Translations under genes and position numbers: made by a program | Notes under the pieces: generated by a model | The model's input: the letters and a program-made list of their open reading frames with translations, nothing else | Database searches by the model: none | What the model was told of the DNA's origin: nothing | Assembly (NCBI RefSeq): GCF_011745625.1 | Contig: NW_027191458.1 | Location: 868,001-932,000, forward strand | Origin: Cladosporium halotolerans | Lineage: Eukaryota | Length of the DNA: 64,000 bases | Direction of reading: 5' to 3' | In this document: in pieces, positions 44,645 through 58,688 of the stretch | Position numbering within the stretch: the first letter of the stretch is position 1 | Layout of the letters: each line of letters begins with the position of its first letter

Positions 44645-46705
44645 ATGTCTGAAACCAAGACTTCGAGTCCTCCGGTCGAACGAGAGACCAATCTCGTCCC
44701 AGGCGAGGATGTCAAAGAATCAACGGTCGACGAGAAGGCATCTAACGGCAATCAATTGAAAGACAATGCCCATTTACCTAAGACGTCGACACGCGATTTG
44801 GTCAACCAAGACGAGGAGAAAGCCCTTCCCTCAATCGGGCAAACCGGCAAGGACACGACCGCTGTGATAGATACCGAGCACGATCCAAACGTGGTCGACT
44901 GGGATGGAGACGACGACCCAGACAACCCCTACAACTGGAGCAAAAAGAAGAAATGGATGAACATCGGTATCTTGTCTACCTTGACCTTACTGACTCCACT
45001 TGGATCCTCCTTCTTCGCTCCTGGTGTTCCACGAGTGATGGCGGACTTCAATTCGACTTCAGAGATCACGGCGACCTTTGTCGTCTCAGTGTAAGTCTAT
45101 TGGCATCCTATCGCAACTTAGCAGACGACTGACGCAGTCCAGATATATCCTTGGCTTTGCATGCGGCCCTCTCTTGATCGCACCACTCAGCGAACTCTAC
45201 GGACGACTGTACATCTACCACGCCTGCAATCTTGGCTACCTCGTCTTCACTATTGCCTGCGCTCTTGCTACTAACATGAACATGCTCATCGTCTTCCGCT
45301 TTTTTGCCGGCTGCTGGGGCGTTGCACCCGTCACAATCGGTGGTGGCACGGTTGCTGATCTCATGAAGCCTGAGGAGCGAGGGTTGGCCATGTCTCTTTG
45401 GGCTATGGGTGCGCTGTTTGGTCCTGTCATAGGGTAAGAGCTCTGATAAGTTCTCTTGTCAGAGTATTACTGACAACTTCTCAGTTCGTAATCACCCATC
45501 AGCTCTGTCTGACAAGGTCCCAAATCTGGCCCACACCACGGTCAAACACTAACCCTCCCCTCACAGGCCCCGTAGCAGGCGGCTTCCTCAGCGAAGCAGT
45601 CGGCTGGCGCTGGATCTTCTGGGTGCTCGCGATCGCCATCGCCGTCGTCTCCTTCACCGCCCTCTTCACCATCCACGAGACGTACGCGCCCGTCCTCCTG
45701 GCCCGCAAAACCGCCCGCCTGCGCAAAGAAATCTCCAACCCGCACCTCCGCTCCAAACTCGAGCAGGACCTCACCCCGCGCCAGATCTTCGTCCGCGCCA
45801 TCACCCGCCCCACGAAGCTCATGCTGCTCAGCCCCGTCTGCTCCCTCATGTCGATCTACATGGCCGTCGTCTACGGCATCCTCTACCTCCTCTTCACGAC
45901 CTTCACCTTCGTCTTCCAGCAGGCCTACGGCTTCAGCGAGTCCATCGTCGGCCTGACGTACATCGGGCTCGGCATCGGCAACTTCATCGGCCTCGCGGCG
46001 CTGGGCGCCAGCTCCGACCGCGTCATGAAGGCGCTGGCCGCGAAGCACAACGGCGGCAAGGCCAAGCCCGAGTACCGCCTGCCGCCGCTGATCTACGGCT
46101 CGCCGTTCATTCCCGTGGGACTGTTTATCTACGGCTGGACGGCGCAGAACAGCGACAGCGTGCACTGGGCTGTGCCGCTGTTTGGGACGCTGTTGGTGGG
46201 GATTGGGCTGATTGCGTGCTTTATGGCGATCAATACGTATCTGATCGATGCGTTTACGCTGTACGCTGCGAGCGCGATGGCGGCGAATACGATTTTGCGA
46301 TCGGTGGGAGTCACCTCCCTGGTCTGTCCGGAGATGCATTCGCTGACGTGAGAGCTTCCCGCAGATTCTGGGTGCGGTGTTTCCTCTGTTTGGACTGAAG
46401 ATGTACAACGCGCTTGGTTTGGTAAGTCGCCGCAGACAAACGACTCGAGAGGATATGGGAGCTGACAAAATCGCAGTATGTCTGCTCCCTCCCGTTTGGA
46501 CTTCGTGGATGTTATCCTTGAGTTGCAACGCCAGATCAAATATTCCAACTGCTTCAATTTGGAGAATGCTAATAATCATCTGTACAGGGGTTGGGGCAAC
46601 AGTCTCCTAGCATTCGTCAGCCTAGCTCTCTGCTCGGTACCGATTTTCTTCTACTATTACGGCGAGAGGCTGCGAACCAGCGAAAGATTCAAAGTCAAGT
46701 TCTAA
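44645..46705 (+). CDS. MFS drug:H+ antiporter-1 (DHA1, 12-TMS) containing two stwintrons
   Basis: VDWDGDDDPDNPYNWS, PLSELYGR, GPVIGPVAGG, GWRWIFW, ETYAPVLL, PEYRL and YNALGLGWGNSLL. Intervening sequences are 45091-45142, 45433-45566 (twin), 46304-46364 and 46421-46587 (twin). Confidence 0.93.
45433..45566 (+). other. Spliceosomal twin intron (stwintron) #1, [D1,2]/[A2,3]
   Basis: Structure G|GTAAGA..TACTGAC..TCAG|TTCGT..CACTAAC..ACAG. Internal intron 45434-45484 splits the external donor G-TTCGT. Confidence 0.85.
46421..46587 (+). other. Spliceosomal twin intron (stwintron) #2, [D1,2]/[A2,3]
   Basis: Structure G|GTAAGT..GCTGAC..GCAG|TATGT..GCTAAT..ACAG. Internal intron 46422-46476 splits the external donor G-TATGT. 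Confidence 0.88.
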
Positions 46706-47119
46706 AAGCTGAACAGAAAAAAGGCAGGTTCGAGATGTTTTGGCCGGAAATAGACCATGTGGTGTTAATTAGAGGGTATCGATGCGCCTTCCAACTCCAG
46801 TGCGATCCTTTGTCGTGTGATACACCCGTCTTTGCAGCTTTAATTCTCATACAAATCCTCCAATTCAGTGGGCGAGGATCCACCCCTTTCTGGCATTCGT
46901 AACATGCGCCAGAACCCCTTCGTGGTGCCCGCGTGCTTGCAGTGGTAATGTAGCACATGAGCTGCATGGTCATGCTGGGCCAAACTGCTTGTGCCTCGTA
47001 TATTGCCCAGCCTCTATACGGCCGCCAGACATGATCAGTGGCCGGCTGAGCGCCGAAGCCCATCAAGCCACGCATGAAATCCCGTCAAGAAAAAACTTTT
47101 AGCTTCCCACCCCCATCTC

Positions 47120-47665
47120 TCAGCGCTTGCCCATCATGCTCTTCCTCTGCGCGATCTTCTTATTCCTGCGATCGACATCACTCCCCGTGTTCTTCCTGCT
47201 GCCAATCTGCTTCGCCTTCCTCTCCTCCTTGTCATCCACGATCGTCAACCAATCGTCCGGCACGGCGCCCTCGGCCTTCTTGCCCTTGTAGCCGTACTTG
47301 GGCTTCCAGTCCTGCGCGGCGTCGTCGAACTCCAGCTTGCCGTCGCGGCGCTTCGGCTTGATGCCCTTCTTCTCCGCGAACTTCTGCCACTTCGTCTTCT
47401 CCTTCTCCTTAGGCACGGGCTTCTCGCGCGGCAGGTGCGTGCTGGGCTCCGGCAGCGTCAGCTGCAGCGACTGGTCGTCGGCCGACTTAGTGATGGCGCA
47501 GGTCGTCAGGAGCTGGTTGATCAGGCCCTGGGCGGTGTCGCGCGCGACGGCTTTGAGGGTGGCCTCTTTGTCTTCGGCGAGCGAGGGGAGGGGGTTCGGG
47601 TCGTTGCAGAGGAGGGAGCCGAGGTCGAAGGTGAATGGTTGGGGTTTGGGTTCGAGGTGTGCCAT
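47120..47665 (-). CDS. RRS1: Ribosome biogenesis regulatory protein Rrs1
   Basis: FDLGSLLCNDPNP, ARDTAQGLINQLL, LPREKPVP..TKWQKFAEKKGI and WKPKYGYKG. Confidence 0.93.
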   Translation of the reverse strand: MAHLEPKPQPFTFDLGSLLCNDPNPLPSLAEDKEATLKAVARDTAQGLINQLLTTCAITKSADDQSLQLTLPEPSTHLPREKPVPKEKEKTKWQKFAEKKGIKPKRRDGKLEFDDAAQDWKPKYGYKGKKAEGAVPDDWLTIVDDKEERKAKQIGSRKNTGSDVDRRNKKIAQRKSMMGKR

Positions 47666-48263
47666 TTTGGCGGTCGTCGTGTGTGTTGGTTGGTTTGGTG
47701 GAAGTGATCGGCCTTTCTTTTGGTATGCCCGCTGAAGAAGAAATCGCGGCCGAGGCGAAATCTTGGCTTGGGGAAGCCGGATAAGGTTGGCGCTAGCTCG
47801 GCAAGGCTGGTAGGGTAAAGTCTAATTCCGCCTGCCGAATGCTCGCTGAGGCTGCATAATCCGTGCTTGCGAGTGTTGTGGTTATTGGTTCTTCTCGTAA
47901 TGGATACACGGCGAGCCAGAACAGAGCTCCTGCGAGTGAGACAAACCCTAGCTCTGGTCTGACGCGCGAGCAGATATCCCTGTATCGCCCACGTTGAAGT
48001 GTCCGCGCCTTGGAAATGTTGCACAGCCTACGCCCAAAAGATCACCAAGCTCCCCGCCAACGTTCCTCCAAAGCTCCATCGTCCTGTGAACTGACGTCTG
48101 GCTTCACCCACACAGCCACCCTGCATGCCGCACCACCCGAAACTTGTTTAAGCTTTGGGATACTTTTCTATAAAGCTACCGTGAGACGCTCACTTCACTC
48201 CTTCTGCTTCTCTCAAACAGTTCCAATCACAGCAGCTTCGCCTTGAACGACTCGCCATCCGAC

Positions 48264-54828: not shown

Positions 54829-56179
54829 AAAGAGACAGATAAGGAAGGTACGAGCACGGTGACAAATGAACTCTGACGGTTCCGGAAGACAAATGGTCGT
54901 CTGGCTCTTTATTCAGGCAATCAGTTCTGCTCTATAGGAGACGATCACTTCTGAAAAGCGCACCATCAACAGTGCAATAATGTGCGTTCGTTAGCTCGGC
55001 ATTATGATAGACACAGTCAGCCGACACTAGGGGTGCACAAGTTCCTCAAATAACGAGAGTTCCCGACTCTGTCTGTTTCAGGCCGACAAGCACATCAATC
55101 TCAATCAAGCTGTCGGCCTGACCGATGACAGTACCCAACCTCTTACAGTAAGATTGCTCAATTCTATTAGCCTTCTTTGAAACTAATACCTTACGGCGGG
55201 TGAAGCGTCTCTTGGACATTTGTTCCAGTAGTAGGCTAACCGGGATTAATTAGAAGTAGGTGAGCATCACGTCGATTACGCTCACGCAGGAAAGGGTAGC
55301 CGACGTGGATCACTCGCGCGGAGTCGTGAAGTCAATATTCCCTATTGCGATCCCGGAGCGTGTGGCCAACGAGCTTCCACTCACGCCAAGTACTCGGCCA
55401 ATGATACCATACTTGAGAATGGTCGTCCTTCATGCTGTTGTTGCTGCTTGCATTTGCTTGCTTGCGTGCAAAAAGCAAAGACTATTGACAACGATAAATG
55501 TTTTCATGCTTGGTCAGAGACAGCATGATGAAGCTGACCGAATGTATGTGACTTCGCCTATGAACATGCATCTACGCTGGAGGGGAGTGGAGTGTGTCGA
55601 GCAGGAAGCGAACTCGAGGTTGTGGTGGACGAACACATTGAGCGCAGCACGACAAGAGCCGCGTGAATGCGCTGCAACGAGCGTGATCAAGTACATGTGT
55701 ATCGATTTTGTCACATTTGACGTATCGTATATACAGTGCAACAGAGCGGAGAAAAGGGAACGAGCGAATGCGAAAATCAATTCGAGTCATGCAGCAACAT
55801 GCAAGACTCTCAGCGTCCAATGATGAAGCGCTTTCTGTCGCAACCTGAATATGTATGCATATGGATGGCCGCCAAGGTGGAGCCGGAGGTCACGTTACAT
55901 TTCCCCTCACCTCCACCTTTCCTAGACGACTGCGACTGAAAGGTTCACGACGACCAAAACAGTCGTCATTGGTGGACTGGCGCGCCGATCATTGATTTGG
56001 TCAAAATTCCAAGCCATATCCCCGCAGACTACGACAAACAGATCAGAATTTAGCCGGTCACTGGGAGCACGTTATAAGATGCTCTCCAAAACATTCGGTC
56101 ATCATGTTTTCCTTCTCTGCGGGACTGCCTGTGCAGACCCCAGCTATACGCGGTCGACCAACATACATGATCATTGAGA

Positions 56180-58688
56180 ATGGTCGGCGGACGAGAAATC
56201 TCTCGGAGCGCTGCGCTTGTCGCAGCAGCTCTTCTCTCTGGAGTGAGAGCAGAGCTTGATTCGAGGCTTTGGTACGACCAACCAGCTGAGCTATGGACCG
56301 ACGCGTTACCGATTGGCAATGGACGGTTGGGTGCCATGATATACGGAAAACCAGATTCTGAGACCCTTCAGATCAACGAAGAAACCGTCTGGTCTGGAGG
56401 GCCCACCGATCGGCTGAATCAGAATGCTTCTCAGGCTGTCACCCAAGTTCGTGAACTTCTGGCCAACGAGCAGGTAGAGGAAGCAGAGAAGCTGGCAGAT
56501 CTGGGCCTCGTCTCAACTCCACAAGCGCAGAGGTACTACCAAACGCTGGGGAACATTGAGATCTACTTCGATGGTGGCCTGGATGAGTACAACAACGGCA
56601 GCTACGAGCGCTGGCTGGATCTGGACAACGCCACCGCCGGCGTACACTTCTCGATCAATGACACTCAGGTCGAGCGGGAGCTGTTCGCATCCGCACCGGA
56701 CGATGTTATAGTCCACAGGCTCACTGCCCAGGGTGGCGGTAAGCTATCGTTCCAGATGCGAGTCAATCGCCCACAAGACAACATCAACACGGCCTCGGAT
56801 AAGAGTTTCAACCGAGGCGGCAACTCAGTCTTCATGACAGGTGCTGCAGGAAGCTCCAATCCGATTGTTTTCGCGGCTGGCCTCACCGTACAGACTGATG
56901 GGAATCTCAAAGCTTGGGGCGAGTTCCTCGTGGTAGACAATGCCACTGAGGCGGTTGCCATGTTTGCTGCTACCACCACGTACAGAGAAGAAGATCCAGT
57001 GGCTGCCGTCGAGAGCACGCTCAATAGCGCCCGGCAACATTCCTACGAGGATCTCCGCCAGCGTCACATCGACGACTATCGGGCCATCTACGACACATGC
57101 AGTCTCAAGCTTGGCAAGGAGGATAACAGCACAACCGACATCTTGCCCACGAACGAAAGGATCAACGCTACCCAGAATGGCGCTAACGATCTTGACCTCA
57201 TTACGCTCGAATTCAACTATGGACGATATCTATTGATATCATCATCCCGACCAGGCACTCTTCCTGCCAACTTGCAAGGAATCTGGAACGAGGATTTCGA
57301 ATCGGCATGGGGATCTAAGTTCACGATCAACATCAATACCGAGATGAACTACTGGCCTGCTGAGCTCACTAATCTTCCATCACTCCACCAGGCTCTCTTC
57401 GACCATATCGAAAAGGTCAGGGTGAACGGCGAGGTTGTTGCTCGCGATATGTACAATGCGTCTGGTTGGGTAGGTACCTCCATAATCCAGAGGCTCAAAC
57501 GCTGCAGATGCTGACAAAGTCCAGGTGGTACACCACAACACAGACATCCACGGTGACGCCGCTCCTCAAGACCGCTACCCGCCAGCTTCATACTGGACCC
57601 TCACCTCTGCCTGGCTCTGCACGCACATCCTCGAGCACTACTTTTACAGCGGCAACCAAACCTTCCTGCAAGAGAAACTCCCCACCCTCACTGGCGCCAT
57701 CCAATTCTACCTCGACACTCTCCAACCCTACCAAATGAACGGCACGACCTACCTCGTCACCAACCCCTCCACCTCCCCCGAAAACACCTACTACACCGCC
57801 TCCAACGCCTCCGGCAGCATGACCGTCGGCCCGACCTGCGACTTCCAAATCCTCCGCGAGCTCTTCACCGGCTACCAGCACGCCGTCGCCTCCCTCCCCT
57901 CCCACCCAGCCATAAACGCCACCTTCCTCGCCGCCATGAACACCACAATGTCCCGCTTCCCCCCGCCCAAACTCTCCACCCGCTACCCCGGCGTCCTCCA
58001 GGAATGGCTGCACGACTACCCCGAAGCCGAGCCCGGCCACAGACACATCTCGCACCTCTACGCGCTCTACCCGGGGACCCAGATCCCCCCTCCCGACGCC
58101 CCAGGCCACAACCCGACCCTCTGGACCGCCGCGCGCAAGACCCTCGACTACCGCCTGGAGAACGGCGGCGCGGGCACCGGCTGGTCGCGCGCCTGGACGA
58201 TCAACTGGGCCGCGCGCCTGCTGGACGGCGCCGCGCTGGCGGACAACGTCTTCGAGTTCTTCAACCGCAGCGCGTACCCGAACCTGTTCGACGCGCACCC
58301 GCCGTTCCAGATTGATGGGAATTTCGGGTTTGCGGCGGGCGTGGCGGAGGGGTTGTTGCAGAGCCATTTTGTGAGGGCGGATGGGGCGCGGGAGGTGTGG
58401 TTGTTGCCTGCGTTGCCGGAGGGGTGGAGCGAGGGGAGAGTGGATGGGTTGGTGGCGAGGGGTGGGTTTGTTGTTGGGTTTGAGTGGAGTGTGGGAAGGG
58501 TTGGGAGGGTTAGTGTGGATAGTAGGCTTGGGGGGAGAGTGGTGGTGAAGTTTGATGTTGGTGGTGTTGGGGGAGGGAGAGTTGATGCTGGGGAAGGGAG
58601 TGATGCGTTTGGGGAGGTAGAGGACGGGATGATGTCGTTGGAGACGGAGGAGGGAGGGATGTATGAGTTTGATGTTATGTGGGATTAG
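56180..58688 (+). CDS. Secreted GH95 alpha-L-fucosidase
   Basis: Signal peptide, then LWYDQPA..ALPIGNGRLGAM, NEETVWSG, YGRYLLISSSR, PANLQGIWN and TININTEMNYW. Intron 57470-57524 gives GW|VVHHNTD. Also HRHISHLY, GWSRAW and PFQIDGNFG. Confidence 0.95.

Follow-up and report, generated by a model that had tools for sequence, protein, structure and literature searches.

We find that one transporter gene of the fungus Cladosporium halotolerans very probably carries two spliceosomal twin introns (stwintrons) within a single coding region. The gene lies in a 64,000-nucleotide (nt) stretch of genomic DNA, hereafter the window (NCBI RefSeq assembly GCF_011745625.1, contig NW_027191458.1, positions 868,001 to 932,000 of the forward strand), where it occupies positions 44645 to 46705 of the plus strand from ATG to TAA (unless a locus is named, coordinates are those of the window); its translation gives a 548-residue protein, probably of the DHA1 type, in the major facilitator superfamily (MFS), encoded in five exons. 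We put at about 85% the probability that two of its four intervening sequences (IVS), IVS2 and IVS4, are independent and genuine stwintrons of the [D1,2]/[A2,3] design, that their splicing is constitutive and proceeds in two steps, and that they arose from intron turnover and are not regulatory. This reading is carried by the sequence design of the two elements, by the exon joins in spliced contigs from close relatives, and by the states of the two sites in related genes, all of them observed directly.

Both elements have the layout G|GT..AG|T..AG|G, as a preliminary description of this DNA, made from the letters alone, had proposed for two of the four intervening sequences: IVS2 reads G|GTAAGA..CTCAG|TTCGT..CACAG|G and IVS4 reads G|GTAAGT..TCGCAG|TATGT..TACAG|G. 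Stwintron 1 (IVS2, 45433 to 45566, plus strand, 134 nt) splits a Gly codon in phase 1 within the motif GPVIG|PVAGG. Its sequence signals delimit a 5' component of 51 nt (45434 to 45484, plus strand; donor GTAAGA, branch ACTGAC at 45469-45474, acceptor CAG) and a 3' component of 83 nt including the shared G at 45484 (45484 to 45566, plus strand; donor GTTCGT, branch ACTAAC at 45548-45553, acceptor CAG). Stwintron 2 (IVS4, 46421 to 46587, plus strand, 167 nt) lies at the Leu codon of ALGL|GWGNSL, and the same kinds of signal delimit a 55-nt 5' component (46422 to 46476, plus strand; donor GTAAGT, branch GCTGAC at 46461-46466, acceptor CAG) and a 112-nt 3' component that includes the shared G at 46476 (46476 to 46587, plus strand; donor GTATGT, branch GCTAAT at 46568-46573, acceptor CAG). 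None of the four component introns is shorter than 51 nt, and each combines a donor of the published list with a DYTRAY branch sequence that precedes an HAG acceptor by 7-11 nt.

At site 1, the [D1,2] route has the 5' component as its internal intron, and its external intron is the 3' component starting with G 45433 instead of G 45484; on the [A2,3] route the 3' component is internal. An exonic G stands on both flanks of each stwintron (45433 and 45567 at site 1, 46421 and 46588 at site 2), which gives both sites the dual-route geometry. The downstream G of site 1 is the obligatory second base of the interrupted Gly codon (G|GC), and the dual-route design is therefore a by-product there. Removal of a single GT..AG intron from either IVS2 or IVS4 leaves one surplus G and shifts the reading frame, and translation of such products bears out the earlier expectation that a one-step event adds one nucleotide and causes a +1 frameshift.

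To judge how often such an arrangement arises by chance, we searched with the published [D1,2] model A (PMC9024468), in which a G is followed by one of 24 donors, a DYTRAY branch, an HAG acceptor fused to the remainder of a second donor, and a second branch and acceptor, each at a defined distance. The only matches of the model on the two strands of the window are those at 45433 and 46421. When the window was shuffled 200 times with its dinucleotides preserved, the mean was 0.06 hits, with 12 shuffles containing one hit and none containing two or more, and 1000 shuffles of the gene gave no hit. The stricter 2017 pattern (GGTRWGY..) is matched by site 2 and not by site 1, because the donors at site 1 are GTAAGA and GTTCGT.

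The two stwintrons bear no sequence similarity to each other (local alignment z 1.1), as the preliminary description had also seen, and copies of them elsewhere in the window amount to chance matches of 12-14 nt. A structured RNA element in the stwintrons was considered and has no case: stwintron 1 folds at z -2.41 (3/200 shuffles equal), mostly through one 11-bp hairpin in its 5' component, stwintron 2 folds at z -0.21 (80/200 shuffles equal), and Rfam returns no match between 44300 and 47000 at E values up to 1, that is, no known intronic RNA. The stwintron sequence also shows a likeness to its own reverse complement, with z about 4.

Contigs assembled from public sequencing runs supply the exon joins. 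We compared contigs of four runs, X1, X2, X5, and X7, of which X2, X5, and X7 represent three studies and three organism codes. Contigs in these three (3/4 runs) align to the gene with skips of exactly 52, 134, 61, and 167 nt, and differ from the window at 43-52 positions over about 1800-2000 nt (2.4-2.6%), as befits close relatives. Four clean skips of intron size make complementary DNA the natural reading of these contigs, the RNA label itself being a guess. The 134-nt skip is placed by the alignment at 45431-45564, which is equivalent in product to 45433-45566, AGG being found at each border; its four equivalent placements have the ends AG..AC, GG..CA, GG..AG, or GT..GG, and never GT..AG. 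The 167-nt skip has the ends GG..AG and can be shifted by at most 2 nt, again with no GT..AG placement. Run X1 holds only unspliced and more diverged pieces (90-99% alike), and at site 1 it gives a "122-nt skip" whose junction sequence is not given and to which we attach no interpretation.

Since the contigs display final joins and not the path to them, each long sequence might have been cut out in one reaction between non-canonical ends (GG..AG or GT..GG), its inner signals being coincidental. We consider this very improbable. Within each element a second donor, branch, and acceptor are all present and spaced as the published pattern requires, an arrangement absent from all 1000 gene shuffles and expected 0.06 times per window; halves of the two elements exist as autonomous plain introns in two related loci described below (L008 and L004); and intermediates of the same design have been sequenced in Trichoderma reesei (PMC5587772).

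Excision of the full 134 and 167 nt joins the protein as FGPVIG|PVAGGFL and ALGL|GWGNSL, and an alignment with the 60 best database proteins has no insertion or deletion at either join. The GPVIG|PVAGG motif is unbroken in 57/60 of the top homologues (116/120 of those listed) and ALGL|GWGNSL in 54/60 (109/120 of those listed), while the homologues in which a motif is broken are truncated, derailed, or locally divergent entries.

We further compared the two sites among relatives by scanning metagenome contigs, from which the best 80 of 374 confirmed DHA1-homologue loci (358 kb) were retained. Automatic tblastn calls scored site 1 as continuous in 66, split in 10, and unresolved in 4 of the 80 loci, and site 2 as continuous in 74, split in 3, and unresolved in 3. 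Such calls overstate the continuous class (in locus L008 a 55-nt intron was read through), and the states were therefore read manually. In a quick maximum-likelihood tree built on the exon-3 region, with 137 rows drawn from the window, the loci, and 60 proteins, the window falls into a clade (Shimodaira-Hasegawa-like approximate likelihood ratio test, SH-aLRT, 99) with the loci L004, L005, and L008 and the proteins P0001 (from Cladosporium sp. NU13) and P0006. Within it P0006 branches first, then the window, then a group uniting L004 and L005 with L008 and P0001 (supports 71, 89, and 86). Apart from the relatives described in the following paragraphs, the best 80 of the 374 loci either are continuous across both sites or carry introns close by, at different positions.

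Site 2 is occupied by a stwintron in other members of this clade. Locus L005 carries one of 157 nt with the same design at the same place, the sole match to model A in the 358 kb of the best 80 of the 374 loci, and the L004 contig, which shows the same 5' component, breaks off after the opening bases of the 3' component. The annotated C terminus of P0001 runs after ALGL as YVSRN...RVGATVS and lacks the last membrane span. When the 5' component of L005 is removed and its 3' component is read through, the result is ALGL-YVSRTLL, to be compared with ALGL-YVSRN in P0001. We infer that P0001 also carries the site 2 stwintron, its derailed annotation probably being a gene-model error caused by read-through of the 3' component. 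Altogether, site 2 would be the older of the two stwintrons and common to the Cladosporium-like relatives.

In locus L008, site 2 holds the 5' component only, as a 55-nt GT..AG intron in phase 0, and the 3' component is absent to the base. This intron is homologous to the 5' component of L005 (z 7.3) and to that of the window (z 3.7, 0/500 shuffles). The simplest reading is a precise loss of the [A2,3] internal intron, which left a plain intron one nucleotide off; loss in the L008 lineage is the simplest account because L008, the sister of P0001 (support 86), is nested among stwintron-bearing rows. As to the origin of the 3' component, a tandem duplication of the 5' intron at site 2 was considered and is not claimed, the signal being weak and uneven: the L008 intron compared with the 3' component of L005 (L005:877-978) is equaled by 6-7/1000 shuffles, and the other pairs by 32, 57, 81, 151, and 704/1000. 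The likeness of the L008 intron to the interior of L005:877-978 could hint at an old tandem duplication.

These relatives bear on whether the window copy is simply broken or mis-assembled, with a spurious G at two intron borders, the spliced contigs having come from relatives with plain introns. The contigs are not from a demonstrably identical genome, differing as they do by 2.4-2.6%. Against this, two independent errors would have to fall exactly at intron borders, each beside a complete inner intron; the site 2 design recurs in L005 and L004, two independent metagenome contigs; an unspliced contig of run X1 crosses 46395-46610 (11 differences and one gap); and run X19 contains all sampled words of the stretch (share 1.00). 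We regard such an artifact as extremely improbable, and genuine stwintrons as the reading to be preferred.

Site 1 has a different history in the relatives that can be read there. In L004 the same Gly codon is interrupted in phase 1, at the place of the [D1,2] external intron, by a plain intron of 61 nt; this intron resembles the 3' component of the window (z 4.6, 0/500 shuffles), and its likeness to the 5' component is not significant (50/500). L041, from a neighboring clade, likewise has a plain phase-1 intron at site 1, of 64 nt, in which a comparison made 1 nt too long found no sequence likeness to the components in the window. L005 and L008 begin downstream of site 1, and the annotations of P0001 and P0006 are correct at this point. 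Read most economically, the plain intron would be ancestral and the 51-nt 5' component a later addition in the lineage of the window; two independent losses would also fit. Together, the phase-0 intron of L008 at site 2 and the phase-1 introns of L004 and L041 at site 1 agree with the earlier suggestion that loss of a half-intron displaces an intron by one nucleotide.

Other introns vary among these relatives. L004 has an extra 61-nt intron (L004:371-431; IGG|GTVADLM) at a point where exon 2 of the window is continuous, and intron content therefore varies even within the small clade of the window. Around ALGLGWGN, plain introns are found at three discordant positions within 5 nt (L052:1558-1612, L041:3553-3670, and L008:722-776): one in phase 1 of the Gly before, one in phase 0 behind Leu, and one in phase 1 of the Gly that comes next.

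We propose the following course of splicing. Each stwintron would consist of two complete U2-type introns that overlap by one G, and one component would be excised first. If this is the 5' component, the upstream G would join TTCGT (site 1) or TATGT (site 2) and so rebuild a donor; if it is the 3' component, the ..CA at the end of the 5' component would join the downstream exonic G and rebuild an acceptor. A second reaction would then remove the rebuilt intron, with an identical messenger RNA (mRNA) resulting from either order. Two-step splicing is suggested by the splice signals, by the autonomous halves in relatives, and by the experiments in T. reesei; the order of the steps and the use of both routes are likewise suggestions, as is the direction of gain and loss, in which a relative of the window (L008) would have precisely lost the 3' component at site 2 and an extra 51-nt intron would have been inserted at site 1 into the donor of a plain phase-1 intron that was already there.

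Several points weigh against this account. The spliced contigs differ from the window by 2.4-2.6% and their RNA label is a guess, so that splicing in the organism of the window itself is deduced from its relatives. No splicing intermediate occurs among the contigs, which cannot show rare forms. Use of the [A2,3] route is a possibility read from sequence, and at site 1 that possibility would be a by-product of the Gly codon. The site 2 stwintron of P0001 is deduced from a derailed protein annotation and not from DNA. Finally, gain versus loss at site 1 turns on two relatives with DNA (L004 and L041), and some of the tree supports are only 71-89.

The preliminary description had also raised a splicing-gated expression switch, in which the order or efficiency of splicing at two dual-route stwintrons would set the amount of in-frame mRNA, +1 products would be destroyed, and pump output would thereby be tuned. 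One-step removal at either site does shift the frame, and the presence of two such sites in one four-intron gene is unusual, given the chance rate of 0.06 model A matches per 64 kb. The +1 products contain no premature stop, so that classical targeting by nonsense-mediated decay (NMD) is not expected: the first stop of the +1 frame after a one-step mis-splice at either stwintron is a TAA at 46900 to 46902 (plus strand), 197 nt downstream of the regular stop at 46703. An early stop, at 46608, is met only when both stwintrons are mis-spliced. The suggestion that mis-spliced messages are "probably NMD-prone" accordingly fails by the usual rule. The products would be a membrane protein with a junk tail, or non-stop messages if the transcript ends before 46900. 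The +1 frame is open over exons 3-5 (45553-46902), which is probably a by-product of the G+C-rich coding sequence.

Relatives, moreover, do without one site or the other (L008 is plain at site 2, and L004 and L041 are plain at site 1), and the G that makes site 1 dual-route is forced by its Gly codon. Our estimate of co-occurrence takes a genome at about 12,000 genes. Spread over such a number, the roughly 117 stwintrons given for Hypoxylon sp. CO27-5 (PMC9024468) would leave about 0.6 genes with two by chance, and finding two together therefore says little. That [D1,2] stwintrons of other fungi are now and then mis-spliced in one step lends the switch some plausibility, but such use of the distal sites has already been published as an occasional error (PMC9024468; PMC12403724). 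We think a switch of this kind very improbable, and a role of the two stwintrons in switching expression is unsupported. Hardly to be expected, too, is a two-checkpoint kinetic gate in which +1 mRNA would be cleared by non-stop decay if the transcript ends near 46775-46790, combined with the birth of a stwintron (site 1) and the decay of another (site 2) in one gene. Constitutive two-step splicing remains the reading we prefer.

The rest of the gene model is conventional. Exon 1 (44645 to 45090, plus strand) is defined by translation, homologue alignment, and spliced contigs, and is followed by the ordinary intron IVS1 (45091 to 45142, plus strand; 52 nt, GTAAGT..CAG), seen as a 52-nt GT..AG skip in X2, X5, and X7. 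Exon 2 (45143 to 45432, plus strand) contains the motif APLSELY uninterrupted, and contigs cross 45143-45430 without a joint. Exon 3 (45567 to 46303, plus strand) is likewise supported by translation, homologues, and spliced contigs. It precedes a second ordinary intron, IVS3 (46304 to 46364, plus strand; 61 nt, GTGGGA..CAG), which appears as a 61-nt GT..AG skip and across which homologues read LRS|ILGA without a VG insertion. The IVS3 donor GTGGGA is unusual and lies outside the published list of 24; L004 and L005 have GTAAGG at the same position. Exon 4 (46365 to 46420, plus strand; 56 nt under the [D1,2] reading) shows 0 differences in three spliced contigs, and exon 5 (46588 to 46705, plus strand), given by translation and spliced contigs, ends in the stop TAA at 46703-46705.

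Exon 3 matches Pfam MFS_1 above its cut-off (E 3e-17). Among NCBIfam models, TIGR00880 "2_A_01_02" scores best with the full-length homologue P0004 (111.6 bits, short of the cut-off of 131), and Bcr/CflA comes next. A homologue search with exon 3 as query, restricted to longer proteins, retrieved 876 proteins at E <= 0.001 among 8000 candidates scored. The closest database homologue is P0001, with 85% identity, and after it come many Dothideomycete proteins with 60-73% identity, whose source names include efflux pumps (CTB4, radE, cpaT). "DHA1-type MFS transporter" is a fair label for the gene at 44645 to 46705, with transport as its putative function; DHA1 stands for drug:H+ antiporter family 1 (TC 2.A.1.2).

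Neighboring genes in the window include RRS1 (convergent, 47120-47821, minus strand), a LURP-one-related gene, a flavin monooxygenase, DNA polymerase delta subunit B, and a GH95 gene, and among the neighboring genes in the 64 kb there is no sign of a biosynthetic cluster. The GH95-type glycoside hydrolase extends over two overlapping open frames (56171-57514 and 57486-58688), which looks like a short intron or a frame change. Downstream of the transporter gene, contigs end at 46774 and 46787, which is not evidence of a poly(A) site. The spliced contig of X2 extends about 800 nt past 46900 into the RRS1 region; the 3' ends of the two genes may overlap, or an unstranded assembly may have merged two transcripts.

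What is new here are stwintron positions in a second, independent DHA1-type gene, the stwintron design and the mechanism of one-nucleotide shifts being known already. Stwintrons are rare and are always mispredicted by gene-prediction software, and correct models of such pumps need the two-step reading; the closest public protein, that of Cladosporium sp. NU13, is visibly mis-annotated at site 2. The gene also repeats the pattern behind the published one-nucleotide shift, some relatives having a stwintron where another has a plain intron displaced by one base, and site 1 may show a stwintron formed recently on an older plain intron. On present evidence it does not reveal a new mode of gene regulation.

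In the available stwintron literature, the Hypoxylaceae supplementary tables apart, we found no description of the positions GPVIG|PVAGG and ALGL|GWGNSL, and in the text of PMC9024468 and PMC8469720, with the same tables apart, no statement of two stwintrons in one gene. The supplementary file of PMC5587772 contains none of the words "Cladosporium", "Dothideomycetes", and "Capnodiales". As cited in PMC5587772 and PMC5639578, the alternative oxidase stwintron of Helminthosporium solani (Ag et al. 2015) shares the [D1,2]/[A2,3] geometry and a Dothideomycete host with the two described here; its gene is unrelated to the transporter. For Hypoxylon sp. CO27-5, PMC9024468 reports 81 uniquely occurring and 36 sister [D1,2] stwintrons, and those in the window resemble them in fitting model A, in lying seamlessly in conserved coding sequence, and in the +1 mis-splice at the distal site that is described there. 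They differ in coming from another fungal class and in forming no "sister" family, the two in the window being mutually unrelated.

The closest known system is dhaoS, a DHA1 antiporter gene whose single stwintron interrupts WGPLSELY within its Leu codon (Fekete et al. 2017, PMC5587772). Among 73 orthologues this stwintron is strictly [D1,2] in 36 and dual-route [D1,2]/[A2,3] in 28, and plain introns one nucleotide apart replace it in 11; a second, plain intron lies 329 bp downstream in 21/73 orthologues, and the loss of one stwintron component has been proposed as the source of such one-nucleotide shifts (PMC5587772). The preliminary description had mentioned stwintrons in a Pezizomycotina DHA1 gene and supposed that at least one site might be orthologous to it, a supposition that the dhaoS positions contradict. 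The gene in the window has no intervening sequence at the dhaoS site (WGPL|SELY), neither at the Leu nor 1 nt after it; APLSELY is continuous in exon 2, and contigs cross it without a joint. By our own count, which assumes no insertions or deletions, the point 329 nt past that codon falls some 85 nt into exon 3, at a place with no intron. On both counts this is a different DHA1-type gene, and neither of its sites, GPVIG|PVAGG and ALGL|GWGNSL, is the published one. It has two stwintrons, in contrast to the one of dhaoS with its plain intron in 21/73 orthologues, and it is known from sequence and contig joins, whereas two-step excision and both intermediates of the same design were shown experimentally for dhaoS in T. 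reesei (PMC5587772). The likenesses are no less close. As in the [D1,2]/[A2,3] stwintron of T. reesei dhaoS and the [D1,2] stwintron of Aspergillus nidulans dhaoS (AN3270), two U2 introns overlap by one G, and, as in dhaoS, an exonic G stands on both sides, the host gene is, by its label, a DHA1-type MFS gene, and relatives have plain introns one nucleotide apart.

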